Source: a virus
Taxonomy: Duplodnaviria; Caudoviricetes
Virus record (IMG/VR): IMGVR_UViG_3300025087_001783
Location: 1-57,089 of that record
DNA: 57,089 nt
Strand: one strand, 5' to 3'
Below the pieces are notes generated by a model. The model did no database searches. It saw only the letters and a list, made by a program, of their open reading frames with translations, and was not told the origin of the DNA. Shown here in pieces: positions 22,082 through 41,726 of this stretch (positions are counted from its first letter, which is position 1; each line of letters starts with the position of its first letter). Position numbers and translations under genes: made by a program.

Positions 22082-22125
22082 CAAGTTTAGTAATATAGGC
22101 AGCACTCCCACTGCCTATATTTTAT
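22082..22125 (+). promoter_or_regulatory. CAAGTTTAGT motif overlapping an 11-bp hairpin (terminator and/or promoter for the replication block)
   Basis: AATATAGGCAG-CACTCCCA-CTGCCTATATT followed by TTAT. Confidence 0.55.
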
Positions 22126-26364: not shown

Positions 26365-26963
26365 TTGGTCCAATGAGCGACAAGCGTATCAGGGAATTAT
26401 GCACTGGCGACAATCCAATGATCGAGCCATTTGTTGATGAGAATGTGCGAGAAATCAGTGGTGCATCGACTGGAAATTACAGGTTTGCTAAGAAAGTTAT
26501 ATCCTATGGGTTGTCCTCGTATGGGTATGATATGCGTTTGGCAACCGATTTCAAGATAGTTACCAGCTTGTATGCTGGAATTATCGATCCGAAGAACATT
26601 GATGCCTTGCACATGCATGAAGAGCATTCAGAGGACTATATTATCATTCCACCAAATGCGTTTGCTTTGGCTCACACGGTTGAATACTGGCGCATCCCTC
26701 GCAACGTGGTAGGTATCGTGCTTGGGAAGAGCACGTACGCGCGCTGCGGGTTGATCGCAAATGTCACAGCCCTGGAGCCAGGCTGGGAGGGGCATCTGAC
26801 GATTGAATTATCAAACAGTGCTCCCCTGCCGCTGAAGGTGTATGTTGGCGAGGGAATTGCACAGTGCATCCTGTTCGAAGCCTCCGAAGAGTGCGAAGTG
26901 TCCTACGCTGACAAGCAGGGAAAATACCAGGCGCAAACAGGTATTACCCTGCCGCGATTGTGA
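26361..26963 (+). CDS. dcd: dCTP deaminase
   Basis: [44 protein letters not shown]. Confidence 0.95.
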
Positions 26964-27029
26964 ATCTTTTAAGGTTCGATTTGTGAAATCTAGAGTATAA
27001 TAAAAGTGCGAGGAAGATTCACCCTCGCA
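26956..27029 (+). promoter_or_regulatory. Putative early promoter (TATAAT 26996-27001) with palindromic operator-like sites and a 5' hairpin
   Basis: GATT-GTG-AATC (26956-26966), GATTT-GTG-AAATC (26978-26990), TGCGAGG/CCTCGCA stem (27007-27029). Confidence 0.5.
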
Positions 27030-27039
27030 GGAGGCTGCA

Positions 27040-27180
27040 ATGTTAAAGAACCTTTACCAGCTAATTTCTGAAGCGCAAGACTATGCAGAGGCATACGCTC
27101 GGCAGTATGCCATCACCGACCCTGATCTACTCAAGGCGATTTACGTCACGCACCTTGCGTACCTCTTGAACGAAAAGTAG
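27040..27180 (+). CDS. Small hypothetical protein (46 aa, below the ORF-track cutoff)
   Basis: AGGAGG RBS; MLKNLYQLISEAQDY...LLNEK; its stop overlaps the next RBS. Confidence 0.7.
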   Translation: MLKNLYQLISEAQDYAEAYARQYAITDPDLLKAIYVTHLAYLLNEK

Positions 27181-27189
27181 GAGGCTGCA

Positions 27190-29481
27190 ATGTCCACCGA
27201 GCGATTTACGGTCGCTGAATTTGAAGAGGTTTTGAACAAAGCGTGCCAGGGGGACGAGGATGAGGATTACACGCTGGAGCTGCGCAAGCGCGGCATTCAG
27301 GCTGGCGAGTACAGATACCAGATCGTGGCCCATAATACGGGGCACGGTCTGGTTTTCGTTGAAATTGCCAGCAGTATAGGTCCCAGCGGTATTGCCGACG
27401 ATACGGGGGAGAACAGCATCCGGCTCTGGCTGACTGGAGAAGACGGCATGCCGATGGGAAACAAGATTTCCCGCTGGGTCACCAGGGTAAAGAACTGGCA
27501 GGACAGGCTCTTCGATCAGTTGGACAGGCTTATCAGCATGGCGCAGGCTATTCGCTGGTGCGATAAATGCCTCTCTTTGGAAAAGGTCTTCATCGTCAAG
27601 AAGGAAGGACCAAACAAGGGCAGATTGTTCATCAAGTGCAACTGCCCCAACAGTTTTGACTGGCTGGAGGAAACCGACCAGGAGGATGAGCCAAAGCTGG
27701 TCAAGGCAAATGAAAAAGCACCGTATTGCCCAAAGTGCGGTGGCAAGATGGTCAAGCGCAACGGAAAGCGCGGACCATTTTACGGATGCTCGTTGTACCC
27801 TGCCTGTACTGGCACTCGGGATATCGAGGACGTCAAGTCCGACCAGGAGGCTGAGCGGGATATGAAACAGGCCTTTGCCAAGCGCGAGGTTGAACAGGAG
27901 CGCAAGGCATTCGAGAGCGATCCCGACATGGTGCGGATGGCGCAGGAGGATAAGCGCGCTGCGTTGCTCAGCAAGCTTGCGAAAACCGATGTTCAGCCAG
28001 TTGCGCAGTCAAAACCTGCCGGCAAGAAGTTTACCCCCACTCCCCAGCAGCTGGCGATTTTCAATTGGGTGCAGCAGAACGTTTTGAAGAAGACCGGCAA
28101 GAGCTTGGTCGTCAATGCTGGACCTGGTTGTGGAAAGACCAGGACTGGCATCGAGTGCACGTTCTTGATCCCCTCTTCATTCAAGGTTGCCTTCACAGCT
28201 TTCAACAAGCATATCGCAGCCGAGTTGCAGGAGAAGGCTCCAAAGCACGTGCGCTGTTGTACGCTTAACAGCCTGGGTTTTGCTGCTTGCCGCAAGGCGT
28301 TCGGGAACAGCATCACGGTAGACGAGTACAAAACTACTCGCATCCTTGAGACGGTGCTGGATAAGTACACCCACAAGCACTTGTATCCGGCAATCCTGCA
28401 ACTGGTATCGCTTTGCAAAGCCAAGCTGAGCGGTGCGACGGCTGCGGAACTGACCGAGATTGCGGATTATCATGGTATCGAGCTGAATGGGGATGCGGAT
28501 ACGGTTTTCGCGGCAGTGGCGATCGTTCTCGAGCAGGATATTGCGATGACAGGTGTTGTAGACTACGATGATCAGGTTTTCCTGCCGGTCTACTATAACC
28601 TGCCCTGCGAGAAGTTTGACGCAATCCTCGGTGACGAGTTACAGGACTTCAACAATGCCAATGCTGCGTTGATTATGCAGAGTCTGAAACCCACTGGCAG
28701 TTTCATCGGGATCGGGGACACCAATCAGAGCCTGTACGGATTTCGTGGTGCCAACGTTGATGCGATCGAGAATGTAGTGAAAATGCTTGATGCTGAGCAG
28801 CTGCCCCTGTCAGTAACATTCCGGTGCCCAAAGAGCCATGTACGTCACTGCAACGAGCATCGTCCGGATATTCCTCTGGCAGCTGCAGATTGGGCAATAG
28901 AAGGCACGCTGCGGTTTGACGTCACGGAAGAGCGCGCCCTTATGGAGTACAAGAGCGGTGACATGGTGATCTGCCGAACAAACGCTCCCCTGGTGGCGCC
29001 AGCGTTTGCTCTGATCCGCAAGGGGATCAAGGCCACGATCCGCGGCAGGGATATCGGCAAAGGCCTGACAGTGCTGATCCGCAAGCTGAAAGCACACGAC
29101 CTGTTTGACCTGATGAGGAAGTTGGAGGAGTACTCGGAGGTGGAGGTTGCTAAACTCATGGCTGCGGAGCGCAGTGCTCAGGCACAGACCCTGCAGGACA
29201 AAGTTGAAACGATAATCGCCTTGAGCGATGGTGTTTCTACGATCAGCGAGTTGGAGGATCGGATCGAGACAATCTTCAGTGACAAGGCAGAAGGCGTGGT
29301 ATTTTCATCTATCCACCGTGCAAAAGGCTTGGAGGCCAAAAACGTTTATATCCTACACCCAGAACTTATCCCGCACCCGATGGCGAAGAAGGAGTGGGAA
29401 CAGCGACAGGAAGGCAATTGCTGGTGGGTATCACGTACTCGCTCGTTGGAAAACCTGACAATCGTTCTTTCAGAAAGATAG
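27190..29481 (+). CDS. SF1 (UvrD/Rep-like) helicase with N-terminal GRF and topoisomerase-type Zn ribbons
   Basis: KKEGPNKGRLFIKC (zf-GRF), CPKCGGKMVKRNGKRGPFYGCSLYPAC (topo zf-C4), AGPGCGKT, DELQD, QSLYGFRGA, TFRCP, SIHRAKGLE. Confidence 0.9.
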   Translation: MSTERFTVAEFEEVLNKACQGDEDEDYTLELRKRGIQAGEYRYQIVAHNTGHGLVFVEIASSIGPSGIADDTGENSIRLWLTGEDGMPMGNKISRWVTRVKNWQDRLFDQLDRLISMAQAIRWCDKCLSLEKVFIVKKEGPNKGRLFIKCNCPNSFDWLEETDQEDEPKLVKANEKAPYCPKCGGKMVKRNGKRGPFYGCSLYPACTGTRDIEDVKSDQEAERDMKQAFAKREVEQERKAFESDPDMVRMAQEDKRAALLSKLAKTDVQPVAQSKPAGKKFTPTPQQLAIFNWVQQNVLKKTGKSLVVNAGPGCGKTRTGIECTFLIPSSFKVAFTAFNKHIAAELQEKAPKHVRCCTLNSLGFAACRKAFGNSITVDEYKTTRILETVLDKYTHKHLYPAILQLVSLCKAKLSGATAAELTEIADYHGIELNGDADTVFAAVAIVLEQDIAMTGVVDYDDQVFLPVYYNLPCEKFDAILGDELQDFNNANAALIMQSLKPTGSFIGIGDTNQSLYGFRGANVDAIENVVKMLDAEQLPLSVTFRCPKSHVRHCNEHRPDIPLAAADWAIEGTLRFDVTEERALMEYKSGDMVICRTNAPLVAPAFALIRKGIKATIRGRDIGKGLTVLIRKLKAHDLFDLMRKLEEYSEVEVAKLMAAERSAQAQTLQDKVETIIALSDGVSTISELEDRIETIFSDKAEGVVFSSIHRAKGLEAKNVYILHPELIPHPMAKKEWEQRQEGNCWWVSRTRSLENLTIVLSER

Positions 29482-29490
29482 GAGGCTGCG

Positions 29491-29694
29491 ATGAAGAAAG
29501 TTATTACTATTACGGTTATTGTTGGGGATGTGCATACTGATCTTGATAAGATGAATCCCCATGATATCGAGCGCGCGGTGCGGGAAGGATGCGTGGAAGT
29601 GCGCCTCCCGAATGGGAGCATTTTCCTTAGTCCTCGCGATGACGACGTTGCTGTAAGTGTATTGGAAATATTCCCCTATCGAACAGGAGGATGA
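29491..29694 (+). CDS. Hypothetical protein
   Basis: Shared extended RBS; 67 aa. Confidence 0.65.
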   Translation: MKKVITITVIVGDVHTDLDKMNPHDIERAVREGCVEVRLPNGSIFLSPRDDDVAVSVLEIFPYRTGG

Positions 29695-29695
29695 T

Positions 29696-30073
29696 ATGAA
29701 GCTAATCCTTGTTGTGAAGCGTAAAGGCGCACCGGACTCCAGCGCGTGGGAAGAGACACTGGATGTTCCAAGAATGCCGGATGATGGTGCATACGATTAT
29801 GCGGAGGCAATCATCCGCAGGTTCAATAATACGCTTAAGCCAGGTGAAAGTCCGCGTGCATTGGTTGACTTGTATGAGGATATTGATGCAAAGGAGGTTA
29901 TTGAGCACGATTGGGAAAAGACCAATCTTATTACGATTAATGATCGCAATGGCCTGTATGATGCCTATCGCTGTTGCAAGTGTGGTATTACCGGCAAGCG
30001 GTTTGGTTTGGGTAGAAACGTCACACGTGATGGAAAGTACTCTGCTAAGAAGTACGAAAATTGTAAGGAGTAG
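29696..30073 (+). CDS. Hypothetical protein with C-terminal H/CxxC Zn-binding pattern
   Basis: AGGAGG RBS; HDW..YRCCKCG. Confidence 0.65.
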   Translation: MKLILVVKRKGAPDSSAWEETLDVPRMPDDGAYDYAEAIIRRFNNTLKPGESPRALVDLYEDIDAKEVIEHDWEKTNLITINDRNGLYDAYRCCKCGITGKRFGLGRNVTRDGKYSAKKYENCKE

Positions 30074-30082
30074 GAGGCTGCA

Positions 30083-30904
30083 ATGGCAAACACGATTTGT
30101 GTGAGTTGGAAGGTTATCAATCATAATTACACTACTCATCATTTGGCATATGCTGGTGCTGATGAATGCTTGTGCGGTGCGGTAATTCCCGAGTTTGCGG
30201 AAAAGGTTGCATATGACGAAATGAAAATTTGTCAGCGGTGTAGATGTTTACATCATAAGCATGCGCACCACGCAGAAAAAGTTGCTGTCAAGTTTAGTAC
30301 AATAGAGGACGAGATGATGGGATTTGCGCAATATTTGGCAGCAAGAAATGCAGGAGAGGTTGTTCTAATGGAGCAGGACGAGCTGGTTGGTGAGCTGTGT
30401 GAGGAGATTGTTAAGGGTTTGCGTTACTACGCTGACAAAGACCTGACCGACGATCAGCTGAAAGCAGTCCTGCGCAAGATGATGGACAACCGGATAGCTG
30501 AGTTGCGATACAGGCACTACGTTACTCATCGTGCTGCACTCATTGGAGCAGCGTCTCTATGCGACGATGATGCGGAGTTTATTACCTCGGACGACATTAC
30601 CCCCGACCAGGCCTATGCCAGTATGGAATATGTCGATGGTGTACGTGCGGCGCTGTCGGATACTGCTGCGAAAGTGTTTGATGCGCTTGTTCATGGCACC
30701 AGTGAGAAGCTGGGAGTGTTGGTTTGGCTATCATGCGTGCGAGCCAATACAGTGCATGCCAATAGCAAAGCGGTATTAAAATACTGGCACGTTGCTCAAG
30801 CGCTGGACATGGACGAGCGCACGGTGCGTGACGCGTTCAATGAGATACGGGCTGTTATGGTGTATGACACCCCGATGGTAAGCAACCAGATCGAATATAC
30901 ATAG
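30083..30904 (+). CDS. Sigma70/ECF-like transcription factor
   Basis: Region-2-like (EQDELVGELC..RKMMDNRIAELR) and C-terminal HTH (HVAQALDMDERTVRDAF); alternative start at 30314 behind CAAGTTTAGTACAAT (30289-30303). Confidence 0.55.
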   Translation: MANTICVSWKVINHNYTTHHLAYAGADECLCGAVIPEFAEKVAYDEMKICQRCRCLHHKHAHHAEKVAVKFSTIEDEMMGFAQYLAARNAGEVVLMEQDELVGELCEEIVKGLRYYADKDLTDDQLKAVLRKMMDNRIAELRYRHYVTHRAALIGAASLCDDDAEFITSDDITPDQAYASMEYVDGVRAALSDTAAKVFDALVHGTSEKLGVLVWLSCVRANTVHANSKAVLKYWHVAQALDMDERTVRDAFNEIRAVMVYDTPMVSNQIEYT

Positions 30905-30915
30905 AGGAGGTTCTT

Positions 30916-31377
30916 GTGACTGCTGCAGTGGATGAGGTCAGTAAGCAGTTTACCAAAAAGGAACTGCACAAGATTGCCGAGGAGCTGGAGATTGGCGTTG
31001 ATATCGGAGCTAGTGCTACCAGCATTGTCTCTACCGTCATTGGCGATCTTGACGAAAATGGAGTTCCCGAGATTGAGGATTGCAGCGACCTGCTCGCAGA
31101 GTTCCTGGTTGCTGCCGAGTATATTGACGAGAATGGAAATCCTGTCCAGGAAGAGGAGGAAAAATCATCAGAAGAACCTGTCATTGATGATGCTAAGAAA
31201 CCGGAGTGTTTCGGATTTCAAGACAGCCGCGATCCGGCGTGTGCAAAGTGCAAGGTTGTTGCAGCGTGCACCAAAGAGCGTGTCCGAACACGCCCAACGT
31301 GTTTTGGTAAGTTGTTCAAAGCGCATGATCCTGAGTGCCAGGCATGCCTAGAGTTTGCAGAATGTAAAGGAGCGTGA
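30916..31377 (+). CDS. Hypothetical protein with duplicated CFG...CxxC Zn modules
   Basis: PECFG..DPACAKC and PTCFG..DPECQAC; GAGGAGG RBS. Confidence 0.65.
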   Translation: MTAAVDEVSKQFTKKELHKIAEELEIGVDIGASATSIVSTVIGDLDENGVPEIEDCSDLLAEFLVAAEYIDENGNPVQEEEEKSSEEPVIDDAKKPECFGFQDSRDPACAKCKVVAACTKERVRTRPTCFGKLFKAHDPECQACLEFAECKGA

Positions 31378-31381
31378 AATT

Positions 31382-32125
31382 ATGGGAAAGCGACGTCGCA
31401 TTGTTCGTCGGAGTGGTAGTGCCTCGAAACCTGCAGTGTCCGATCAGGACCTCGAAGAAGAGGAAGATCTGGAAGTCGAAGGCGAAGAGCCTGAAGACGA
31501 GTACGACGAGGAAGATCTGGAAGTCGAAGATCTCGAAGAAGAAGATGAGGACGAGGAAGAAGAGGAAATTCCTGTTCGCAAGAGCAAGACCGTTGCTCCT
31601 CCGGCAAAGCCTGCCTCCAAGAAACCCGCACCGGCAAAGCCCGCTGTCAAGAAACCTGCCAAGCCCGTTGATGAGGACGAAGACGAGGATGAGGAAACTC
31701 CTGCCCCTGCCAAAGTCACCATCAAGAAGATCGACCAGCAGATGGCTGAGCTGACCCTGACTGGGCTGCTGGAAGCCATGGACGACGGCAACAGCCTGCT
31801 GATCACCAAGCTGGAAACTGGCAAGTGGCAGATTTCCACTACTGATGCCAAGGTTGTTGGTCGTGGATTCAAGCGTGGTAGGGATTACGATATGGAAGTC
31901 GAGGATCCGAAATTCCACGAGTGGCGTGATGAGTGGCGCGCGCTGTCTTTCGAAGAGAAGAAAAAGCGTGCCAAGAAAGCTGGCGCCACTTGGGAGCCGC
32001 ACGACAATCCTCAGATCGAGGTCATCCGCATGGCAGAGGCCTATCGCGCCAAGCTGGGCATCCACAAGTACAAGCCAGAATATCGGACCTACGCTGCACG
32101 CGCAGCTGTCCGCGCTGGCAAGTAA
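31382..32125 (+). CDS. Acidic / Lys-Pro-Ala-rich hypothetical protein
   Basis: AGGAG RBS; low-complexity E/D and KKPA tracts; followed by a hairpin. Confidence 0.7.
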   Translation: MGKRRRIVRRSGSASKPAVSDQDLEEEEDLEVEGEEPEDEYDEEDLEVEDLEEEDEDEEEEEIPVRKSKTVAPPAKPASKKPAPAKPAVKKPAKPVDEDEDEDEETPAPAKVTIKKIDQQMAELTLTGLLEAMDDGNSLLITKLETGKWQISTTDAKVVGRGFKRGRDYDMEVEDPKFHEWRDEWRALSFEEKKKRAKKAGATWEPHDNPQIEVIRMAEAYRAKLGIHKYKPEYRTYAARAAVRAGK

Positions 32126-32145
32126 TATCAACTATCTGTTTTGGA

Positions 32146-32183
32146 AAACCATGCTGCCTGTGTCATTCCAGGCAGCATGGTTT
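32146..32183 (+). terminator. Stem-loop/terminator
   Basis: AAACCATGCTGCCTG-TGTCATTC-CAGGCAGCATGGTTT 15-bp stem. Confidence 0.65.
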
Positions 32184-32195
32184 GGGAAATAAACA

Positions 32196-33254
32196 ATGGC
32201 CTCCGCGATTAAAGACAACCCGTTCTCCGCAGATTATCATTTACTGTATTTTGCTGAATTTGTGAAAGCTGTGCAGGATGCTGGTGGAACCACACCGCAT
32301 ATGCTGATGACAGTCGAGTCCGCAAGGCGCCAAAAGCACACGGATGAAAAACTGTGGTGGGCAGGTTGTTATGCGTTCGTGTACAACTACGCCAGCGCGG
32401 AGGTTTTATACAACCACTGGCGTCCAGGAGAATGGACTGTGGACGAACTATCTAAGTGGATTGGCGAAAACTGGAAGGGCATTAAGTTTCGCAAGGAGCG
32501 CAAGGCTGCTAGGAGCGTGGCGCGCTTGACAACTTGCATGCAAACGTACTATGATTTTATGGAGCGCGTTCCGGATCGTGATTGGTTCCGCAGCAAAAAT
32601 GGGTATTCCGGTGGGGAGCGTTATAACGCCGCGTTTGAGGATATATGCAACAATGTAAAGTACATGGGCAGATATATTGCAATCCGGTGGTTGGAGGTTG
32701 TGCGGCGCGTGTTTGACATCGACATGGAGATGCCTGACTTGCGGTCCAGGGATGGCGATCATCCTCGCAAGGCATTGGCACTGATGTATCCGGAGCATCT
32801 GACTGCACTGATGGGTGGCAACTCTGATGCTGAAATTGCTGAAACGGATGAGGTTGTTGAGATTTGCAAAGAGGACTTGCGCAAGCTGTATGGCGTCAAA
32901 ACGGATTATTACACCATGCAGTCGCTGCTGTGCGAGTATAAGCAGAGCTGCCTTGGGCGCAGACAATATCCTGGCAAGTCCGTTGACAGCGAGTTGTCAT
33001 ACTTCGAAAAGGTTTGCACGGATTGGTGGGGGGATGCGTTTCGTGAGCAGACAATCATGTACGACGTTCGTAGAACGATATTTCCATCCTACATGCTTGG
33101 AGAGGTCCAGGGTTGGAGTGGAGTACGCGAGGAGCTGGGTAATGTGCTGGTTGACCATGGCTATACTTGGAGTGACAGGGTGTATAATTATGTCAAAACC
33201 AAGGATTTTTCCAATCCTGTGTTGCGGTCTAGCAAGGTTACGAGTATTCTATGA
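32196..33254 (+). CDS. Amino acid:DNA transferase-like protein (aGPT-Pplase2/ADDT family)
   Basis: KYMGRYIAIRWLE, HPRKAL, QSLLCEYK..YPG motifs; adjacent to a kinase and aGPT-Pplase1. Confidence 0.7.
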   Translation: MASAIKDNPFSADYHLLYFAEFVKAVQDAGGTTPHMLMTVESARRQKHTDEKLWWAGCYAFVYNYASAEVLYNHWRPGEWTVDELSKWIGENWKGIKFRKERKAARSVARLTTCMQTYYDFMERVPDRDWFRSKNGYSGGERYNAAFEDICNNVKYMGRYIAIRWLEVVRRVFDIDMEMPDLRSRDGDHPRKALALMYPEHLTALMGGNSDAEIAETDEVVEICKEDLRKLYGVKTDYYTMQSLLCEYKQSCLGRRQYPGKSVDSELSYFEKVCTDWWGDAFREQTIMYDVRRTIFPSYMLGEVQGWSGVREELGNVLVDHGYTWSDRVYNYVKTKDFSNPVLRSSKVTSIL

Positions 33255-33685
33255 GAGCCACACCTATTTTACCAGGGAAATTATACCAGGGTCCAGAGTT
33301 CGGTAACAGGCCTTTGCAGGAGAAATTATCATTAATCAGGGATAATAGGATTGATGTCGTAATTAATGTTTACAAGAATCCTGATGTCAAGTTGCGAGAG
33401 AGGATGTACGAGTATATCTATTTCCCTATGTCGGATGGAAAAACATTCAATGCACTGGAGCTGATGGATCTTGCGGAGCGCGCTGCGGATTTGCTCAGGG
33501 CAGGTTATGTTATTTATACCCACTGCCATGCTGGCAGGAATCGCAGTGGATTCCTGAACGCGTTGATTGTTAGGGACTATTGCAATATTCCCGGTCATCA
33601 GGCATTGCAGCATGTCAGGCAAATGCGACCGCGCGCTGTTGACAACGAGTATTTTGAGTGGTTCTTAGAGGAGATTGATGCATGA
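33251..33685 (+). CDS. Dual-specificity/protein-tyrosine phosphatase-fold protein
   Basis: HCHAGRNRS (HCX5R), upstream PMSD acid loop, VRQMRP. Confidence 0.9.
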   Translation: MRATPILPGKLYQGPEFGNRPLQEKLSLIRDNRIDVVINVYKNPDVKLRERMYEYIYFPMSDGKTFNALELMDLAERAADLLRAGYVIYTHCHAGRNRSGFLNALIVRDYCNIPGHQALQHVRQMRPRAVDNEYFEWFLEEIDA

Positions 33686-34287
33686 TCATACAGTTGCGCG
33701 GCACATCAGGATCAGGCAAAACCTATACCGCTCGATCGTTTATGGAGTGCTATGCTCCCGACATTCAAATTTGTGATATTGGCGGCAAGACTGTTGCGCA
33801 TTGCGTGTATTGGGAGATGCAACCTGTATACTTGTTGGGCAGTTACAAGAATGTTTGTGGGGGATGCGATAGCATCAGCAGTCAGGACATGGTTTGCAGC
33901 CTGGTGCGGCATTTCAGCCAGTTTGGGCATGTAATTTTCGAGGGCCTGATAATGTCGCACTTATACGCGCGCTATGCAGCGTTGGCAGATGAGATGTCAG
34001 AAGCTGGGGATGTATTTACGTTTGCGTTTATGGATACTCCACTAGAGTTGTGCTTGGAGCGTATCGTACAGCGCAGGATTACCAAAGGTAATTATAAGGA
34101 GCTTAATCCTGACAATACGATTGGCAAGTACGAATCTACGCATGCTGTGGCAGAAAAGCTCAGGAAAGCTGGGTACAACGTTGTTTGGATCAATCATAAG
34201 AAAACTCCTGTTACACAGCTGATCAGTTTGCTGCATAAAGACAACATACCATTTGAGCAGTCCTATCGGGAGGAAAGTTTCCGATGA
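33682..34287 (+). CDS. P-loop nucleotide/DNA kinase of base-modification clusters
   Basis: IIQLRGTSGSGKT, GSY..CGGCD, FEG, CLERIVQRR. Confidence 0.75.
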   Translation: MIIQLRGTSGSGKTYTARSFMECYAPDIQICDIGGKTVAHCVYWEMQPVYLLGSYKNVCGGCDSISSQDMVCSLVRHFSQFGHVIFEGLIMSHLYARYAALADEMSEAGDVFTFAFMDTPLELCLERIVQRRITKGNYKELNPDNTIGKYESTHAVAEKLRKAGYNVVWINHKKTPVTQLISLLHKDNIPFEQSYREESFR

Positions 34288-35174
34288 AGCTGAAAGCGTC
34301 GCATGTTGCTAGATATTTTCAATTCTGCGCAGAACGGCATGCAATATATGCATGTAGGCAACGCGGCGATGAGTGGCCATGGACAACCAACGAAATCCTG
34401 AAAACATACAAGTTTACCAATGTATACAGAGAGTTAGACATTGGGACGGTATGGTTGCGAGAGAACATTCGTGGGCCGTATGCTGATGATCCGGAGCTGT
34501 TTTTCAATATTGCATTGTATCGCAGGTACAACTATTGGCCCATGGCTGAATGTATAGGATATGTTGATGTTTACGAGGAAGTGCTACAGCTTCCTGACAT
34601 AGCGCGCTCTTACAAAACGCACGGTGGGCAGGTGTTTACAGGTGCGCACATGATTAACTGCCCAAAACCGTTCAAAAGCAAGATCGACTACGTGTTTGAT
34701 ATTGGCGCCAAAGAGCTGTGGGAAAAGCGCAGGGGTATAGAGGATTGTCATTCATTGCAGGAAGCGTTCAACTGGCTGAAAACATTGGGAGGTTTTGGCC
34801 CATTTATTAGCTATGAGGTTGTTACAGATTTGCGTTGGACGCGCTATTTACAAGACGCTCCTGACATAAATACTTGGGCAAACCCTGGTCCTGGGGCACA
34901 GCGTGGTATATTGCGGTTGATGGACTACCCTATCAACAATCATGCAGGCCTCCCAAAGCTACCACCAGGGGTAAAGTGTCCTGGCAGCTTTATTGCTGCA
35001 ATGCAGGCACTGTTAGAAAAATCCAGGAGCGTTCTGCCTGATTGGATGCCGGCATTTGAATTAAGGGATGTGGAGCACAGCTTGTGCGAATTTGACAAGT
35101 ACGAGCGTGTCAGGACTGGCGAGGGTCGTCCAAGAAGCAAGTTCGTACCGCCACATTTACGCGATCAAGTTTAG
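34284..35174 (+). CDS. aGPT-Pplase1 / 5-hmdU DNA kinase helical-domain family protein
   Basis: ERH.IY..PWT..IL..YKFTNVYRELD, GFGPFISYEVVTDL, GPGAQRG, EHSLCEFDKY. Confidence 0.85.
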   Translation: MKLKASHVARYFQFCAERHAIYACRQRGDEWPWTTNEILKTYKFTNVYRELDIGTVWLRENIRGPYADDPELFFNIALYRRYNYWPMAECIGYVDVYEEVLQLPDIARSYKTHGGQVFTGAHMINCPKPFKSKIDYVFDIGAKELWEKRRGIEDCHSLQEAFNWLKTLGGFGPFISYEVVTDLRWTRYLQDAPDINTWANPGPGAQRGILRLMDYPINNHAGLPKLPPGVKCPGSFIAAMQALLEKSRSVLPDWMPAFELRDVEHSLCEFDKYERVRTGEGRPRSKFVPPHLRDQV

Positions 35175-35180
35175 TTAAAT

Positions 35181-35465
35181 ATGAACACCAAGCAATATTA
35201 CCTAGAGCTGACAGATAAGGAAAAAGAAGACGCCAAGAATTTCCATAACGCTGTTGTTGCTGCGGTTGATAAGTTTGCGGCAACCTACGGATATATGCCA
35301 AGCTGTGTGTATATGCGCGAGGATCAGATAATTGATGGGTTTGTAATACCTGCGAAAGTTGCTCCGCAGCCGCCATACCATATCATGCTTGGCCCATATG
35401 TAATTGCTCGCACCCCTAAGATATTCATAGGAGTTAGAAATGGAAAACGAAATCACAAAAGCTAA
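35181..35465 (+). CDS. Hypothetical protein
   Basis: 94-aa ORF within the cluster. Confidence 0.55.
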   Translation: MNTKQYYLELTDKEKEDAKNFHNAVVAAVDKFAATYGYMPSCVYMREDQIIDGFVIPAKVAPQPPYHIMLGPYVIARTPKIFIGVRNGKRNHKS

Positions 35466-35877
35466 GACTCTTGAAGTCACTGCTGACGATTTGTACAAGG
35501 ATTTATCTGGAAAGGCTGGTGATCATGTCAATGATGTCAATGTGCTGATGTCATTGCTGCACAACCTACACGTTGCCAAGGAGCGAGTGTACAATTTATC
35601 ATTTTGCCGGAGAGGTCTGGTTGGAGTTTGGATGAACCTGGCTCGCAAGTATGACAGGATCGATGCCATGTCCTGCTCCGAAGACTATCGCAATTTTACC
35701 TATATTGACACGCTATTTGACACGGCTGCGTACGCGCTGAAGATGATTGATATCCTGCGCAAGATGTACCCAGAGGCATTTGACAAGTGGCTGGAGAACG
35801 TGTATTGCGAATACACTGGACATAGTATCACTCACGTTCGTAAGATACTGAATGGGGATGGAAATGAACAGCGATAA
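35440..35877 (+). CDS. Nucleotide-modification-associated domain (Nmad1/DUF1599-like, MazG-fold)
   Basis: AK..Y..RKYDRI..DTLFDTAAYA pattern; AGGAG RBS. Confidence 0.6.
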   Translation: MENEITKAKTLEVTADDLYKDLSGKAGDHVNDVNVLMSLLHNLHVAKERVYNLSFCRRGLVGVWMNLARKYDRIDAMSCSEDYRNFTYIDTLFDTAAYALKMIDILRKMYPEAFDKWLENVYCEYTGHSITHVRKILNGDGNEQR

Positions 35878-36052
35878 GGATGTATACATCGAGATTGATG
35901 TTATTAAGCTGATGATCACGACAGCGGCAGCACTGTCGTTTTGCATGACAGTTATCTTGTTTATTACTGGGCTTATACTGCTGTGCGTTTTGTCGTTGCT
36001 TATTACGCTGCCTCTTTGCATGCTATTCCTAGCATACGTTATGGAAGCGTGA
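35864..36052 (+). CDS. Small membrane protein
   Basis: Long hydrophobic stretch. Confidence 0.45.
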   Translation: MNSDKDVYIEIDVIKLMITTAAALSFCMTVILFITGLILLCVLSLLITLPLCMLFLAYVMEA

Positions 36053-36053
36053 T

Positions 36054-38609
36054 ATGAGCAATCCTTCTGAGACCAACGAGGTTTGCATAAAGTGTGGATT
36101 GTGGAAGGGATGCAAAACACCATTTATGCCCGCTCATGGCCCAGAGGATGCAAAGCTGACGATTGTAGGAGAGGCTCCTGGAGCACAGGAGGATGAGATT
36201 GGAATACCGTTTGTTGGACAGAGTGGGGAATTGTTGCGTAATGTATTGCGGGAGGTTGGTTTTGATCCTGAGAAGGATGTCAGATATACGAACGTCGTAC
36301 GTTGCAGGCCTCCGGACAATAAACTAGGTTCGAAGGCGATTATCAAAGCCTGTAGCCAATTTGCCCATCAAGAGCTGGCTGGCACCCCACAAGGGCAAAT
36401 TTGGTTGATGGGAGGCAGTGCTCTCATGGGGATTCTAGGAGAAGTTGGCATCACTGCTTGGAACGGGATAAAGGTAGAAAAGGGTGGAAATACCTTTGTC
36501 CCACTCTATCACCCTGCTTATATTCTGCGCAATATGAACATGCTGGACGAGTGGTTGGATGCCATGCTGAAGGCAGTAGATGGAGAAGAGGAGCGTAAGG
36601 GTTTTGAGCGCGTGATTATCAATACTGTGCAGGGCATGCTAGAGATGCAGCTGGACCTCGCGGAGTATGATGTTATCAGTTACGACACAGAGACCAGCGA
36701 TCTCAATCCATATGCTGAGTACAGCTTCGTACTGTCTGCCAGCTTTGCCAGGCCTGGACGCGCGTACGCATTTCCATTAGATCATCCAGAAACACCATGG
36801 TCTGTAGCTGAGCGGGAGCAGGTATATGATATATTATGCGATGTATTGATGTCGCATAACGGTCGTGTTGTTGGACACAATATCAAGTTTGACCAGCTGC
36901 ATACATTGGCTTATGCGGACATAGATTTTGCTGCTGGTGGGGACAGCATGCTTATCAGCCACTTGCTGGATAGTCGCAGAGGTATTCATGGATTGAAGCA
37001 TTTGGCAGGTATGCACCTAGGAATGTATGAGTATGAACAAGAACTATCTATTTATATTAACAGTCATCCAGAGGCAAACCCACATAAAGGTGGTTCGTAT
37101 GCTTTTGTACCTTTGGACATTTTGTTGCCATATGGTGCTATGGATGCAGAGGCCACGTTATTACTGGTTGAAAAGTTGTATGATAGTTTATCGGACGCGC
37201 AGCGGACGCTTTATGACGAGATGGTGATACCTGCCAGCAATGTACTGTGTCGTATGCAGAGTAATGGGTTGAATCTGGACACGTACATTGCAGCGCGTTA
37301 TGCTAAGATTTACAACTGGCGCCAGCATCGTTTGTACGAGGAGTTGCAAAACGATCCTAAGGTTCGTAGGATGGTCAAAAAACATGCTACGAACAAGAAA
37401 TGGAAATTCAACCCAAACTCGTCGTACCACTTGTCAGAGCTGTATTTTGAGCAGTATAAAATACCTGTTGTTGGAGAAACTCCAAAGGGCAGGCCGTCCA
37501 CAAGCGCGAAGCTGTACAAGAACCTTGAGGAAAGATTTCCAATATTACACAAAGTGCGATATTATAAGTTGCTGACAAAAATGCTTGGGACATACATTGA
37601 GCCTGTACAGGGGAAGTGGTTGTCAGCAGATGGTAGGGTGCGTTCTACATACTTGCTGCACGGGACTGTTACCGGCAGGCTTGCCTCTGAGCAGCCAAAT
37701 TTACAAAACATTCCCACACCCGAAAAAGAGCCAGGTACATTGCTGGAAACCTTGCCAATCAAGAATGTGTTTACTCATACCTACAAGGGTGGGTTGGTGA
37801 TGAGTGTTGACTATAGTGGTATGGAGCTGAGAGTATTTGCAAGCGTTGCAAAATGCATGTTGATGATATCTATTCACAAGAGCGGGCTGGATTTCCATAG
37901 AATGGTTGCAGCTTTGAGCTTGCGCATGATCAGCAAAAACGATATGCTGCAGGTGGATGATTGGGCATATGCAAAAGCACAATTCCAGCCAATCATAGGA
38001 CAGATAGACAAGCCGACGCGTTATGTTTACAAATGGACGAACTGGACATTATTGTACGGTGGCGACGAGTACACGTTGCACCGTATGTACGACGTGCCCA
38101 TTGAAGACGCGCAGGAAACCGTGCGTATGTATTATGACATGTTCCCAGAAGTGCTTGAGTACAGGGAAAGTTGTAGGGAGTTTGCTGAGGATCATGGCTA
38201 TATAGAGAGTCCGTTCGGGCGCAGGGCACAATTGCCGTACATCAATGACAGAGATAATGGAAAACGCAACAAGGCTGTGCGAGAAGCAGTCAATATGCCT
38301 GTGCAGTCAGCAGCCAGTGATACACTGTTGTGCGCTGCTATTATCATTAATAGGTATATGCAAGAGCAATGCATGAAGTCTATGCTTGTAAATACTGTGC
38401 ACGACAGCTTGATGATTGACGCGCATCCAAAGGAAATAGAGCATTTGGCATATCTGTGCAAGACTCGTATGGAGAATATCAGTAAGTACGCGGCAGTGCA
38501 AATGCCAAATGTGGATTTCAGCTGGCTTATAAGCCCGCTTAAGGCAGATGTAGATGTCGGCACCCATTATGGTGTCATGGAGGATATTGACGAATGGATG
38601 AAAAAGTAG
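36054..38609 (+). CDS. polA: Family A DNA polymerase with N-terminal family-4 uracil-DNA-glycosylase-like domain
   Basis: CIKCGL..VGEAPG..PFVG..CRPP..HPAY (UDG); DTET, HNIKFD, YGAMD (3'-5' exo); TGRLAS..PNLQNIP, DYSGMELR, NMPVQS, VHDS. Confidence 0.95.
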   Translation: MSNPSETNEVCIKCGLWKGCKTPFMPAHGPEDAKLTIVGEAPGAQEDEIGIPFVGQSGELLRNVLREVGFDPEKDVRYTNVVRCRPPDNKLGSKAIIKACSQFAHQELAGTPQGQIWLMGGSALMGILGEVGITAWNGIKVEKGGNTFVPLYHPAYILRNMNMLDEWLDAMLKAVDGEEERKGFERVIINTVQGMLEMQLDLAEYDVISYDTETSDLNPYAEYSFVLSASFARPGRAYAFPLDHPETPWSVAEREQVYDILCDVLMSHNGRVVGHNIKFDQLHTLAYADIDFAAGGDSMLISHLLDSRRGIHGLKHLAGMHLGMYEYEQELSIYINSHPEANPHKGGSYAFVPLDILLPYGAMDAEATLLLVEKLYDSLSDAQRTLYDEMVIPASNVLCRMQSNGLNLDTYIAARYAKIYNWRQHRLYEELQNDPKVRRMVKKHATNKKWKFNPNSSYHLSELYFEQYKIPVVGETPKGRPSTSAKLYKNLEERFPILHKVRYYKLLTKMLGTYIEPVQGKWLSADGRVRSTYLLHGTVTGRLASEQPNLQNIPTPEKEPGTLLETLPIKNVFTHTYKGGLVMSVDYSGMELRVFASVAKCMLMISIHKSGLDFHRMVAALSLRMISKNDMLQVDDWAYAKAQFQPIIGQIDKPTRYVYKWTNWTLLYGGDEYTLHRMYDVPIEDAQETVRMYYDMFPEVLEYRESCREFAEDHGYIESPFGRRAQLPYINDRDNGKRNKAVREAVNMPVQSAASDTLLCAAIIINRYMQEQCMKSMLVNTVHDSLMIDAHPKEIEHLAYLCKTRMENISKYAAVQMPNVDFSWLISPLKADVDVGTHYGVMEDIDEWMKK

Positions 38610-38827
38610 ATGGACCGCAGGTTATTAGGATTCCCGTTGATATGCGCGGCAAGCAAGTGCTGGTGTTTAGCAACTTGCCGGAGTTTATCGACAAGCAAAA
38701 ATTGTCGGAGGACGTTCGCGCATGGCTCAATAGTGACGATCCTATTTATGCAGTGTTTTCCAATACTGATATTAGGGTTGAATTGGTGAGGATTTCCAGA
38801 GGAAGGAGAAACGGTCATGGGCGATGA
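38594..38827 (+). CDS. Hypothetical protein
   Basis: GGAGG RBS; 77 aa. Confidence 0.55.
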   Translation: MDEKVDGPQVIRIPVDMRGKQVLVFSNLPEFIDKQKLSEDVRAWLNSDDPIYAVFSNTDIRVELVRISRGRRNGHGR

Positions 38828-38972
38828 ACCATTCTATTACAATTCAGAGGATTTCAAGGACTTTCCAGAAGTGACAAGCCAGGATGGGGAAACGTACACT
38901 GGTATTGACACTGTCATCACCTACGATAATGATGGGGAACAGCATGTGGAGGTTATTGTAGATGAACGATGA
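38817..38972 (+). CDS. Small acidic hypothetical protein (51 aa)
   Basis: AAGGAG RBS; MGDEPFYYNSEDF...VIVDER; fills the gap between neighbours. Confidence 0.55.
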   Translation: MGDEPFYYNSEDFKDFPEVTSQDGETYTGIDTVITYDNDGEQHVEVIVDER

Positions 38973-39519
38973 TATTATCCATGAGATTTCTGGAACACAG
39001 ATATCAGTTGTTGATATGCGTGGCAAGCTGCGCACGTTCGACATCGGCGATATTTTCAATATTGACGAGAGTAACATCAGCAAGGAATTTACCCAGCAAG
39101 CAAGCCTGTACGCGTTCTTTGCAGCATTGGCTGCTACTGCTGAGAAGAAAGCTGCTGATGCGGACTTCTTGAAAGACCAGGAATATGCTCAAGCCGATCA
39201 AGCCAGCCGCGAGGATTTGGAGGAGCAGAGTATCAAATATACTGAGGCAGTTATCAAGTCCATGGTCGTCACGGATGCAGGTTATACCAAGCGTGTGCGC
39301 AATCATATTATTGCAGAGTACGATTACAGGTTATTGAAGGCATTGGCATCCGCGCTGGAGCAGCGTGCAAATATGTTGATTAGTTTGGGGGCATACTTGC
39401 GGCACGAGTTGGATCAGACTGCTATGAATATCAAACGTGCTCAGACTGATGGAGCTGTTGAGGAAGCCAAACGTTTGATGCGTGAACGTAAAGGCGATAA
39501 AAATAGTGGGCAAGTTTAG
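38962..39519 (+). CDS. UvsY-like recombination mediator
   Basis: Coiled coil with TEAVIKS..D..Y and ALEQRANMLISLGA; next to the SSB gene. Confidence 0.6.
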   Translation: MNDDIIHEISGTQISVVDMRGKLRTFDIGDIFNIDESNISKEFTQQASLYAFFAALAATAEKKAADADFLKDQEYAQADQASREDLEEQSIKYTEAVIKSMVVTDAGYTKRVRNHIIAEYDYRLLKALASALEQRANMLISLGAYLRHELDQTAMNIKRAQTDGAVEEAKRLMRERKGDKNSGQV

Positions 39520-39525
39520 TATAAT
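39511..39525 (+). promoter_or_regulatory. Phage promoter motif CAAGTTTAG-TATAAT
   Basis: Identical to 6810-6824. Confidence 0.7.
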
Positions 39526-39529
39526 AGAG

Positions 39530-39576
39530 TTGCCTAGGAGTTGTGGTTGGCAGCCTCTACTGCAATTCCTAGGCAA
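39530..39576 (+). ncRNA. 18-bp RNA hairpin with 11-nt loop (candidate antisense sRNA or structured ssb leader)
   Basis: TTGCCTAGGAGTTGTGGT / ACTGCAATTCCTAGGCAA is fully paired only if three G-U wobbles are allowed, which points to a + strand RNA structure; loop TGGCAGCCTCT. Confidence 0.65.
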
Positions 39577-39580
39577 TCTA

Positions 39581-39604
39581 ATCACTCGATCACTCAATCA
39601 CTAA
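39581..39604 (+). repeat. Tandem 8-nt repeat ATCACT(CG/CA/AA) x3 upstream of the ssb RBS
   Basis: ATCACTCG-ATCACTCA-ATCACTAA. Confidence 0.8.
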
Positions 39605-39620
39605 CAAAAAGGAGTACGAA

Positions 39621-40508
39621 ATGGCTGTAACAAAGAAACCCGCAAAAATGGATCGTGGCGCGAGGCTGGCTGCTTTGCGCGATAAGATCAAGAACACCGA
39701 TCTTGGAGGCGGTGGGGGTGCTGGATTTTGGTCGCCGAAAGAGGGCGCCAACGTGATCCGTATCCTGCCTGAGGTTGGAGACATGCCGTTCTTTTTCCAA
39801 ACGGTCGGGCGGCATTACTTCCCTCCGGATGGTAAGAAGAACGTATATTGCCCAAAGTTTACCACCGAGGGAGAGCGCGAGTGTCCAGTCTGCGAAATTG
39901 TAGAGGATCTGTATAAGAGTGGTGATGCTGCAAACAAAACGCTTGCTGGCCAGCTGCGAGTTCGCAAGCAGTACTGGATGAATGTCATCGATCGCAGTGC
40001 TGACAAGGACAAAACTGCTCCGCTAATCTACACCCCTGGCCAGAAGGTTTTCGGATCGATCGTGGCACTGATCCAGGATCCGGATTATGGTGACATCCAC
40101 GACATTGAGCAAGGCCTGGATATTACCATTAATCGGTCAGGTAAGGGTTTGGAGACCGAGTATGAAGTGGTTCCACGGCGCAAGGCCTCCCCTCTCAGTC
40201 AGGATCCTGACAAAGCTGCTGAATGGATTGAGAAAGCCAAAGACCTGTCCTGGGCGGAAGTCAGTGAAGATCCCGATGAGGATAAGGAGCTGTCCAGCGG
40301 GCATGCTGTGTATATCCTGCCGTATGATCGTATCGTCAAGGATCATGATCTTGACGATCCGGACTTCATCACTGACGAGGAAGAAGATGATGATGTCGAT
40401 GAAGAAGACGAGGACGAAGATGAAGATGAGGACGAGGAAGATCCACCGACCACTCGTCCTGCTCGTCGAGCACCTACTCGCACGGCGCGACGTTCTACCA
40501 GGCGATAG
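39621..40508 (+). CDS. Single-stranded DNA-binding protein (T4 gp32-like)
   Basis: FW..G.NVIRILP, H..YCP..CPVCE, YWMNVIDR, G.DITI..G.G..TEY; acidic tail. Confidence 0.8.
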   Translation: MAVTKKPAKMDRGARLAALRDKIKNTDLGGGGGAGFWSPKEGANVIRILPEVGDMPFFFQTVGRHYFPPDGKKNVYCPKFTTEGERECPVCEIVEDLYKSGDAANKTLAGQLRVRKQYWMNVIDRSADKDKTAPLIYTPGQKVFGSIVALIQDPDYGDIHDIEQGLDITINRSGKGLETEYEVVPRRKASPLSQDPDKAAEWIEKAKDLSWAEVSEDPDEDKELSSGHAVYILPYDRIVKDHDLDDPDFITDEEEDDDVDEEDEDEDEDEDEEDPPTTRPARRAPTRTARRSTRR

Positions 40509-40517
40509 GGTGCAATA

Positions 40518-41726
40518 ATGCAGCCAGTCCGCATCATTCACTTTGCAGACCTCCACATAGGCGTAGACCGCAACGGTCCTGTCGATCCGGAAACAGCTAT
40601 CAACGGCAGAGTGTTGGACTTTCTGGACGCGTTGGATGCTGCAGTGGATTATGCTGTAGAGAATGATGCGGACTTGGCATTGTTTGCTGGGGATGCGTTT
40701 CATAAGCACAACCCTGACCCAACATATGTCAGGGAGTTTGCAGAGCGTATTATCCGACTGGCTGAGCAGTGTCCGGTTGTGCTATTGCTTGGAAATCATG
40801 ATATGCCAGGAATTATCGAGAAGGCCACTGCGATCGACATGTTTGATGTATTCAACGTGCCAAATGTCATAGTAGGTTGGCGAGACGAGTTACACATTAT
40901 CAAAACCAAGCGTGGTAGTGTGCAGGTTGCTACTGTGCCATATCCTATGAAACAACAGCTGCTAACTGCCAAACAGCTGCGTAAGTGTAAGGACGTCAAG
41001 CAATTATTGCAAGCTGCCGTCAAGCGCATTATCATTAATCTTGCAGAGCAGGTTGTTGACACCATGCCGGCAGTGCTGGTTGGGCACTTTTCAGTAACCA
41101 ACGCGACGTACGGCAGTGAGCGCATGCTATCATTGGACAACGGTGCAGAGGTTGCACTGGAGGATTTACTAGATCCGTGGGACTACGTGGCATTGGGGCA
41201 TTTGCATATGCAGCAATGCTTGACAGAGGATTATGAGGATGCAGCTCCTGTAGTTTACAGCGGATCATTGGAGCGCGTTGATTTTGGGGAGGAGCATCAG
41301 CCCAAGGGTTTTATGTGGGTGGAAATCGGGGATGAGATTGCCTACGATTTTGTAGAGGTTGATGCGCGTCCATATGTTACAATTGACGTGAATGTGTCAA
41401 AGTCTAAGCACCCCACAGAAAAGGTTTTACAGCGTATACAGGCAATGGATTTACAGAGTGCGGTTGTTAGGATAAGGATTAATGCAGTAGACTCCTCCTA
41501 TTTGCAAGAGGAGCGTATACATCAGGCAGTTATACAGGCAGGCGCGTATTTTGTGCACTCATTGAGCATCACTCGCAGGCCTGTTAAAACAGAGACGCGT
41601 TTGGCAGACGTTAAGCTATCAACACTGCCAGCGATTGATGCGTTACAGGTATACCTGGAAGAAACAGGGGCGAAAAACATTCCAGGATTGCTGCAGTTGG
41701 CGAGGGAGGTTATGTGTGATGGATGA
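40518..41726 (+). CDS. SbcD/Mre11-like metallophosphoesterase nuclease
   Basis: ADLHIG, AGDAFH, GNHD, GH, ALGHLH, YSGS..DFGE. Confidence 0.9.
   Translation: MQPVRIIHFADLHIGVDRNGPVDPETAINGRVLDFLDALDAAVDYAVENDADLALFAGDAFHKHNPDPTYVREFAERIIRLAEQCPVVLLLGNHDMPGIIEKATAIDMFDVFNVPNVIVGWRDELHIIKTKRGSVQVATVPYPMKQQLLTAKQLRKCKDVKQLLQAAVKRIIINLAEQVVDTMPAVLVGHFSVTNATYGSERMLSLDNGAEVALEDLLDPWDYVALGHLHMQQCLTEDYEDAAPVVYSGSLERVDFGEEHQPKGFMWVEIGDEIAYDFVEVDARPYVTIDVNVSKSKHPTEKVLQRIQAMDLQSAVVRIRINAVDSSYLQEERIHQAVIQAGAYFVHSLSITRRPVKTETRLADVKLSTLPAIDALQVYLEETGAKNIPGLLQLAREVMCDG

Follow-up and report, generated by a model that had tools for sequence, protein, structure and literature searches.

A hairpin loop in the ssb leader of an uncultured phage as a candidate antisense RNA to an extended ribosome-binding-site tag

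Antisense RNAs that mask ribosome-binding sites (RBSs) are an established kind of regulator, known from the C4 RNA of phages P1 and P7 and from the C-rich-loop small RNAs (sRNAs) of Staphylococcus aureus. In the Rsa RNAs of S. aureus, a C-rich hairpin loop with a UCCC motif reportedly pairs with the Shine–Dalgarno (SD) sequence of several mRNAs and blocks initiation. Here we describe a candidate of this kind in an uncultured groundwater phage, IMG/VR record IMGVR_UViG_3300025087_001783. The stretch of DNA analysed (the window) is the whole 57,089-bp record, which has 47% G+C and carries all its long open reading frames (ORFs) on the + strand. The element in question is a hairpin in the leader of ssb, the gene for a gp32-type single-stranded DNA-binding protein (SSB), and its loop is complementary to an extended SD sequence, hereafter the tag, shared by four genes of an operon about 10 kb upstream. 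We consider this hairpin a candidate trans-acting anti-RBS RNA and put the probability that it functions by pairing in trans with the tagged starts at roughly 55%.

Several described phage systems frame the comparison. C4, from the immI locus of P1 and P7, is an antisense RNA whose exposed loops pair with the mRNA, one of them occluding an RBS; RNase P cuts it from a longer transcript, and a few specificity bases in the loops differ between P1 and P7 along with their targets (PMC5320573, in the sections drawn on here). Cluster K mycobacteriophages have a conserved, asymmetric motif, the start-associated sequence (SAS), made of an SD core and flanks that have no partner in 16S rRNA. It lies a few bases before the ATG of a subset of non-structural genes from different gene families, in one orientation and often over the upstream stop codon. 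Its function has been unknown since 2011, when the authors allowed for a partner that is 'either RNA or protein' (excerpts of PMC3203893), and it was still called untested in 2025 (PMC12699233). The gene 32 operator of T4 and RB69 opens with a folded 5' element; behind it come more than 40 nt of RNA that is less structured and carries short repeats as well as the RBS (PMC535899, in part). Finally, the PeSL cassettes of T4-type phages are short repeated regulatory modules that border small non-essential genes and are tied to modular shuffling (PMC2839356, in part).

The tag, AGGAGGCTGC(A/G)ATG, occurs four times in the window against 0.09 expected, a count that 0 of 100 shuffles reached. A search with the pattern AGGAGGCTGCRATG at up to one mismatch gave four matches, all exact and all on the + strand (27029, 27179, 29480 and 30072), and every one of them ends in the ATG of an ORF, at 27040 (46 amino acids, aa), 27190 (763 aa), 29491 (67 aa) and 30083 (273 aa). 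The tag stands at none of the other curated gene starts (69 starts listed), which bears out the claim of an earlier note on this DNA that the same tag heads four genes and no other. The spacer CUGC is invariant at all four sites; the neighbouring starts at 29696 and 30916 also have AGGAGG and a 5-nt spacer, with different spacer letters. At three of the four sites the TAG stop codon of the upstream gene overlaps the SD (TAGGAGG), and at these three the similarity extends about 7 nt further upstream (repeat family D17).

The ssb-leader hairpin is formed by positions 39529-39547 pairing with 39559-39577, a stem of 19 bp with four G-U pairs counting the terminal one; the 18-bp stem with three G-U pairs reported earlier is the same stem minus its terminal pair. 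The 99-nt stretch that holds the hairpin has a folding energy of -32.3 kcal/mol (z -4.0), a value matched by 0 of 200 shuffles. Between GCAGCCUCU in the loop and GGAGGCUGC there are eight Watson-Crick pairs and one G-U pair, exactly the nine-nucleotide match that had been claimed; the claim that this pairing extends through single bulges fails, an extension needing instead a 1 × 1 mismatch. Among 68 start regions ranked for the loop, the tagged starts occupy places 1 to 4 (-18.7 to -19.0 kcal/mol, the next start at -15.6), in agreement with the ranking proposed as a check, and these top places hold by construction. The loop-tag duplex reaches -18.7 kcal/mol, compared with -10.3 for the canonical anti-SD tail on the same tag, and the RNA could therefore outcompete the 30S subunit at the tagged starts only.

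An RNAcofold dimer fold contains no loop-tag contact, loop-to-strand contacts being beyond the model of that program. Rfam does not match its C4 family at 39480-39640, where it gives only chance-level miRNA rows at E ≤ 1; over the window as a whole no Rfam family reaches its gathering score, and a tRNA gene search finds none. An intrinsic terminator was considered for the hairpin and rejected: the stem is followed by AAUCUAAUCACU, with no U run, and is missing from the terminator scan. Contigs from four DNA runs, compared over 26900-39800, have no difference at the tag copies or the hairpin among the differences listed, and we draw no conclusion from them since the cover is patchy, one run being almost without cover over 29917-30778.

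Relatives of the phage are distant. By megablast and blastn, the regions 26900-31000 and 38900-40600 have no DNA relative among phage records, and tblastn with the proteins finds only distant phages below 60% identity. A scan of IMG/VR with the SSB alone returned only relatives at 27-28% among the matches listed, and a scan with the 273-aa protein returned none. Relatives at 42-62% protein identity came from IMG/VR and from metagenomes once the DNA polymerase, and after it an SSB alignment, served as query; at 60-99% identity no relative was found in any collection searched, only identical fragments (L004, L024). Twelve IMG/VR records (G001-G012) were read, eleven whole and G009 in part. L059 is the same phage as L130, and G004 the same as L039.

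On the evidence of the window alone we rated the antisense idea at about 10% and considered a simple stabilising hairpin at the 5' end, or an operator of the gp32 type, more likely. The reading shifted toward antisense because the relatives at 42-62% identity show tag and loop changing together. First: the tag GGAGGCUGA heads ten genes in G006, four in G010 and one in L031, and in all three phages a tRNA-like element occupies the corresponding position ahead of ssb, with UCAGCCUCC in its enlarged loop. In G006 (40.7 kb), 10 of 10 copies of GGAGGCTG on the + strand are followed by ATG or GTG within 12 nt, the ten starts reading (U)AGGAGGCUGA, and the leader contains UCAGCCUCCUGG about 100 nt ahead of ssb. 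All five copies of GGAGGCTG in G010 are at starts (5/5), with UUCAGCCUCCA in the leader, and L031 pairs its one tagged start with a leader containing UUCAGCCUCC. Position 9 of the tag is C in 4/4 window sites, where it faces a loop G, and A in 10/10 sites of G006, 4/4 of G010 and 1/1 of L031, where it faces a loop U; read from sequence, this C:G to A:U switch is a compensatory change. The motif CAGCCTC[CT] is present in the ssb leader of 4 of 13 sources (the window, G006, G010 and L031), all of them tag holders, and in 0 of 8 sources without a repeated tag. G005 also has tagged starts, and its loop UUCAGCCCCUU has one internal mismatch; ordered by energy among 144, these starts take places 2, 6 and 8, which is not significant.

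Second: two further relatives have pairs of their own. L059 carries a tag unrelated in sequence, GAUUUGUAAGGAG(C), at three starts including that of the helicase, and the first hairpin behind the promoter ahead of its ssb has the loop GCUCCUUACAGAU, which makes 12-13 contiguous pairs with that tag. In G004, the leader stretch CUCCUCUUGACUAG pairs over 14 positions with CUAGUCAAGAGGAG at the start of a 121-aa ORF, a match with a single target and a leader stretch that is partly paired in the minimum-energy fold. With the C:G and A:U versions and these unrelated pairs, loop and RBS tag are seen to covary among relatives, the outcome that the earlier note had asked of them. The element lies directly behind the conserved promoter motif in every case. 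What is observed directly comprises these sequences, the fold, the element's conserved place behind the promoter, and the way tag and loop covary.

The tRNA-like element lies between promoter and ssb at L031:4377-4448, at about 39760-39840 of G006 (oriented record) and about 35080-35170 of G010, and also in L038/G005, L065 and L125. Its parts are an acceptor stem and a T arm with GGTTCGAATCC, the D arm is missing, and the enlarged anticodon-like loop holds the anti-RBS stretch. In L031, G006, G010 and G005 it scores 25.4 bits in Rfam, below the cut-off of 29, and ARAGORN calls nothing; the scaffold of these relatives is tRNA-like only and not a tRNA. The long ssb leader of L038 also has a match to the Rfam DUF3800-VI RNA upstream of its tRNA-like element (L038:13381-13433; 37.6 bits, cut-off 35).

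The match was set against a strict null in which the anti-SD core was kept and the loop flanks were shuffled 200 times, at 13 loci and with three measures: the longest match, the number of starts with at least nine pairs, and the mean of the three best energies. Five of the 13 loci reach P ≤ 0.02 on at least one measure, namely the window (0.01, 0.02), G010 (0.01), G006 (all three ≤ 0.015), G004 (0, 0.01) and L059 (0, 0.025, 0). A further view is given by a scan of whole leaders against all start regions in 31 sources, with the reversed leader as control and matches of at least 10 nt counted: leader and control give 11 and 0 matches in G006, 4 and 0 in G010, 1 and 0 in L031, and 6 and 3 in G004. 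In an automatic count, 8 of the 27 distinct ssb leaders have a hairpin loop with an anti-SD 4-mer, where random windows would give 2.3. The stronger proposition that every leader of the family has an anti-SD core in a loop was dropped after this count; such a loop is common in the family and not universal.

The arrangement suggests the following mechanism. The family promoter CAAGTTTAGTATAAT would produce the ssb transcript, whose 5' end would fold into the stable hairpin and display a loop tuned, as an anti-RBS, to the private extended SD tag (U)AGGAGGCUGC of the four genes in the helicase/sigma-like operon 10 kb upstream. Either within the ssb mRNA or after cleavage, the loop would then pair in trans with the SD and spacer of the four start regions in competition with the 30S subunit, and translation of the tagged genes would drop once the ssb promoter is active. 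Relatives display the same anti-RBS on the D-arm-less tRNA-like scaffold, which could be excised as a small RNA; their scaffolds suggest release by tRNA-processing enzymes, as for C4 RNA. Synthesis of the RNA, its pairing in vivo, the repression and its timing are all deduced from sequence, and the 'early' targets and 'middle' ssb promoter of the earlier note are likewise putative. A wider and more tentative reading, possible though on balance doubtful, would make private extended SD tags an address code in this family of uncultured phages. The tags would mark a block of the replication region that includes the sigma-like factor, and they would have a single reader, the leading end of the ssb mRNA, with an interchangeable scaffold: an ordinary hairpin, or a tRNA-like fold, lacking the D arm, that could be released by the tRNA-processing enzymes of the host. 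Firing of a sigma-dependent ssb promoter would shut the tagged genes off, while the sigma factor would persist through an untagged internal start; tag and reader would drift together, with one code per lineage, and the same logic could account for start-associated sequences elsewhere.

Table 1. Features of the tagged operon and of the ssb leader, in positions of the window.
Feature	Coordinates	Strand	Remarks
Promoter-like sequence AGTATAAT	26994..27001	+	Precedes tagged operon; without the CAAGTTTAG block of the ssb-type promoter; putative function
Small 5' hairpin, 7 bp	27007..27029	+	Adjoins first tagged RBS
Tag copy 1, AGGAGGCTGCAATG	27029..27042	+	Start of 46-aa ORF (27040-27180)
Tag copy 2	27179..27192	+	Start of UvrD-type helicase with zinc ribbons (27190-29481); preceding TAG stop overlaps SD
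Tag copy 3, AGGAGGCTGCGATG	29480..29493	+	Start of 67-aa ORF (29491-29694); helicase TAG stop overlaps SD
Tag copy 4	30072..30085	+	Start of 273-aa ORF (30083-30904)
Internal promoter motif CAAGTTTAGTACAATAGAG	30289..30307	+	Just 5' of conserved part of the sigma-like protein
Family promoter motif CAAGTTTAGTATAATAGAG	39511..39529	+	TAG stop of upstream gene inside motif
Hairpin, 19 bp	39529..39577	+	Begins at end of promoter motif; no U run after it
Loop, 11 nt, UGGCAGCCUCU	39548..39558	+	Anti-RBS stretch GCAGCCUCU = 39550-39558
Remainder of ssb leader	39578..39620	+	43 nt, G-poor, mostly unpaired; three (A)ATCACT repeats; ssb SD AAGGAG
Gene of gp32-type single-strand DNA-binding protein	39621..40508	+	PF08804 2.3e-16; phrog_1192 5.1e-38

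A number of observations weigh against a trans-acting role. In the window the match is just nine pairs long, one of them G-U (longest-match P 0.6); partners for the 9-mer with at most one G-U number two on the + strand (39550 and 54301) against 0.87 ± 0.83 in 100 shuffles, and 2.7% of 300 shuffled loops reach an equal best energy. The partner at 54301-54309 is a perfect 9-nt complement of the tag, GCAGCCTCC, within ORF 53669-54469; it is probably a chance occurrence, and would otherwise be a second pairing partner on a late transcript. A 9-bp helix is under strain within a loop of 11 nt and would require the top of the stem, rich in G-U, to open. A search of sequencing runs for the phage listed no RNA run. 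Among the relatives, eight of the 13 loci are not significant under the strict null (G005, L031 and G001, the last two at 0.08, with L109, L108, L104, L115 and L107); five of these (L104, L107, L108, L115 and L031) are contigs of 4-13 kb, and the eight include the complete genome G001 and the near-complete G005 (CheckV 90%). The loops in that test were chosen by eye and three measures were examined. The whole-leader scan of L059 gives three matches against five in the control, the control matches coming from a repeat-rich leader, and the complete genomes G002, G003, G007 and G008 are without such a loop. The C:G/A:U switch counts as a single evolutionary event because the class of phages with the window tag is mostly one clade: in a tree of the SSBs, made by a quick search, the four members with the tRNA-like element form one clade (SH-aLRT 100), with the window outside it and the untagged G002 nearer to it than the window is. 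In G001, lastly, the loop ranks the start of its own ssb first of 106 and that of the helicase fourth. The central claim of the earlier note, that an antisense loop coordinately occludes the RBSs of the tagged genes, is partly supported, by the covariation of tag and loop, and weakened by the 8 of 13 loci where the relation is absent or not significant.

The explanation that survives best beside trans pairing is that the hairpin serves the ssb mRNA in cis only, as a 5' stabilising stem-loop or as the folded nucleation part of a gp32-type autogenous operator, and that the loop-tag match is coincidental. As the sole account we judge this unlikely. The SSB belongs to the gp32 family, and the window has the make-up of such an operator, with a 5' folded element followed by at least 40 nt of unstructured leader with repeats and the RBS; in detail, three AUCACU units lie in the 43-nt G-poor leader behind the hairpin, much as in the T4/RB69 operators (as far as PMC535899 was drawn on). 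T[TC]AC units (AUCACU, UUACU) number 44 in the last 60 nt before ssb at 21 loci against 7.0 expected, with at least three units in 9 of the 21 leaders, a motif that was picked after inspecting the same sequences. Free variation in size and sequence is seen among the structured elements behind the promoter, and in G001 the apical loop UUUCCUGCGA (10068-10077) pairs over 10 nt with the SD region of its own ssb, UUGCAGGAAA (10129-10138), its best partner, which from the sequence may mean that in some phages such as this one the target is in cis. Left unexplained is why the loop tracks the tag of other genes in G006, G010, L031, L059 and G004, and why the loop of the window fits its own ssb start so poorly: cis pairing at that start, considered as a candidate in its own right, was rejected at rank 138 of 141. 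A cis role is likely as an addition and weakened as the sole role. By analogy with gene 32, a second, cis function of the leader in SSB autoregulation is likely, and it is compatible with the trans role.

Another explanation places the meaning of the shared RBS in gene exchange. The tag would mark a cassette-exchange junction at which small lineage-specific genes bring in a strong stop-SD-start module, and would be kept for translational coupling with no dedicated regulator. The 46- and 67-aa ORFs and their 125-aa neighbour, placed between tagged genes (p46, p67 and p125), have no homologue in any fetched relative, unlike the helicase, the sigma-like protein and the downstream genes, whose homologues are present there; the TAG stops that overlap the SD at three sites and the similarity that runs on for about 7 nt upstream of them point the same way, and T4-type phages are known to recombine at short regulatory cassettes (PeSL; PMC2839356, in part). 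Coupling, however, has no need of a CUGC spacer, yet the spacer is invariant at 4/4 sites; the tag is kept across phages at about 50% protein identity, where it heads non-homologous genes; and a cassette junction predicts no complement in an RNA loop. The earlier note had offered a cassette boundary as an alternative: the lineage-specific genes fit it, and the loop complement is outside what it predicts. As a replacement for the antisense reading we find it quite unlikely, and the two can both hold.

Pure chance must also be weighed, since the complement was sought across 57 kb after the tag had been seen, and C/U-rich loops fit any SD. It draws on the two sites against 0.87 expected, on the 2.7% of shuffled loops with equal best energy, and on a longest match that is ordinary for the window once the anti-SD core is kept. 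Chance leaves unexplained that relatives repeat the relation with three different sequences, that five of 13 loci are significant under the core-kept null, and that the whole-element scan gives 11 matches against 0 in the control for G006 and 4 against 0 for G010, and we give it a low probability. Least probable, and put aside as very improbable, is a tag that serves as DNA operator for a sequence-specific DNA-binding protein, with an inverted operator just downstream of the promoter as the ssb-leader copy: the loop stretch is indeed the reverse complement of the tag at the DNA level, and repeated 13-bp junction sites (stoperators) affect transcription in cluster A mycobacteriophages (excerpts of PMC3203893), but the strand and the distance to the ATG are strict (10/10 in G006, 5/5 in G010, 4/4 exact 14-mers in the window), every lineage with an inverted copy displays it in an apical loop, of either an RNA hairpin or a tRNA-like fold, which a DNA site does not need, and the window copy uses a G-U pair, which has meaning for RNA and not for DNA.

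One of the putative targets, the 273-aa protein, consists of a Cys/His-rich extension (residues 1-70), found only in the window phage, and a family-conserved part (residues 71 to about 258). The extension (30083-30313) has a lower G+C (42%) and is absent from all nine homologues, in which similarity starts at residue 71-94. The predicted fold of the region 30314-30904 has a pLDDT of 75, and the top Foldseek rows listed for the conserved part are almost all sigma factors, with weak scores (best E 0.016, TM about 0.25). In the homologue set, Pfam finds Sigma70_r3 in 1/9 members at 0.062 and r2 in 1/9 at 0.18; the window protein itself has no Pfam or PHROGs match, and a profile search against PDB gives no sigma. 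The conserved part is, on this modelling, probably sigma-like, and the earlier suggestion that the targets include a sigma-like factor is to that extent probable. The homologue of this gene is also tagged in G006 (30127) and, as AGAGGCUGAAAUG, in G005 (42466). An internal promoter motif is found at the corresponding place in G001 (74845), G002 (35620) and G010, and with this promoter copy inside the sigma-like gene a later, untagged route to the protein is conceivable.

The promoter motif CAAGTTTAGTATAAT has eight matches in the window at up to three mismatches, against 1.64 expected; the 'class B promoter' of the earlier note is a real repeated motif, and one common to relatives. It precedes ssb in most family members (G001, L005, L025, L031 and others). 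Its block CAAGTTTAGTA with an A/T-rich -10-like part stands at 6810, 19501, 22082, 26020, 30289, 35166 and 39511 of the window. The block is common to relatives at only about 50% protein identity, with 15 exact copies in G002, and this conservation points to a specificity factor encoded by the phage; in four genomes the sigma-like gene contains a copy. The structured element right behind the promoter ahead of ssb is very variable in size and sequence among the relatives.

Other structures accompany copies of this promoter. A second hairpin, at 22094-22119, lies directly behind the copy at 22082, and its loop CACUCCCA is also anti-SD-like; its best partner among the start regions is at 46403 (-15.8 kcal/mol, a figure without shuffle control). 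A 14-bp terminator-like hairpin (6765-6793) comes before the copy at 6810, which is followed by a long structured leader (6851-6907, with a 12-bp outer stem) ahead of the ORF at 6930. At the head of the tagged operon, where the promoter-like sequence of Table 1 is found, G001 has TAGTATAAT in the corresponding position before its helicase gene, and the small 5' hairpin at 27007..27029 folds no better than shuffles (z -1.15). Elsewhere in the window, the ORF 32196-33254 matches Pfam PF18724, an amino acid:DNA transferase (1.1e-14), and the phage may therefore carry hypermodified bases. A 70-nt repeat that encodes a Gly-rich peptide occurs at 1155-1224, 1806-1875, 20837-20906 and 21682-21751 (67-74% identity to the reference copy), twice within a 1240-aa ORF and also at the N termini of the small ORFs at 20823 and 21668.

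If the trans-acting reading is true, the phage would have a simple and portable means to switch off a gene set post-transcriptionally, and regulons of this sort could be found by a computational rule. The short pair of a loop and a 10-nt tag, with natural compensatory variants, would be testable, and relatives, through their tRNA-like display, would obtain a stable small RNA in an unusual way. Our literature searches, which were aimed at known analogues, found no private tag read by a leader-borne loop; no search was aimed at the arrangement itself, and its absence from print is not claimed.

Compared with the systems that opened this account, the locus resembles the gene 32 operator in that a gp32-family SSB gene stands behind a folded element and a poorly structured repeat leader with the RBS. 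It differs from the T4 element by a plain 19-bp hairpin and AUCACU repeats in place of a pseudoknot and UUAAA/UAAA repeats, and the two have no sequence similarity; the T4 gene 32 element is not known to have an anti-RBS loop directed at other genes. The PeSL stem-loop is a terminator and its repeat a promoter; the repeat of the present phage is an RBS, and no U run follows the stem-loop. From the Rsa sRNAs of S. aureus, which are bacterial and complement a generic SD, the candidate is set apart by its phage origin and its extended private tag, only the tagged genes matching it well. Like C4, it would be a phage RNA with a loop complementary to the RBS of its target, and loop and target covary. 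Unlike C4, one loop would serve 4-10 targets that share a tag and belong to a different operon, at a distance of 10 kb; the RNA would be the ssb leader rather than part of an immunity operon, its scaffold is interchangeable, and it has no match to the C4 family of Rfam. The likeness to the SAS concerns the target side: the tag lies 3-7 bp ahead of the starts of non-structural genes, in one orientation, with an SD core and flanks that have no 16S partner. It is distinct from the SAS in sequence (GGGATAGGAGCCC for the SAS consensus, UAGGAGGCUGC/A here), in phage group and in host, and AGGAGGCTGC does not match the SAS consensus within two deviations. It also differs in that a candidate partner RNA is present here, the excerpts of PMC3203893 describing no complementary RNA loop for the SAS. 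For motifs of the start-associated type, a candidate partner is visible in the sequence, an RNA loop whose position behind a conserved promoter is fixed and which changes along with the tag in relatives.

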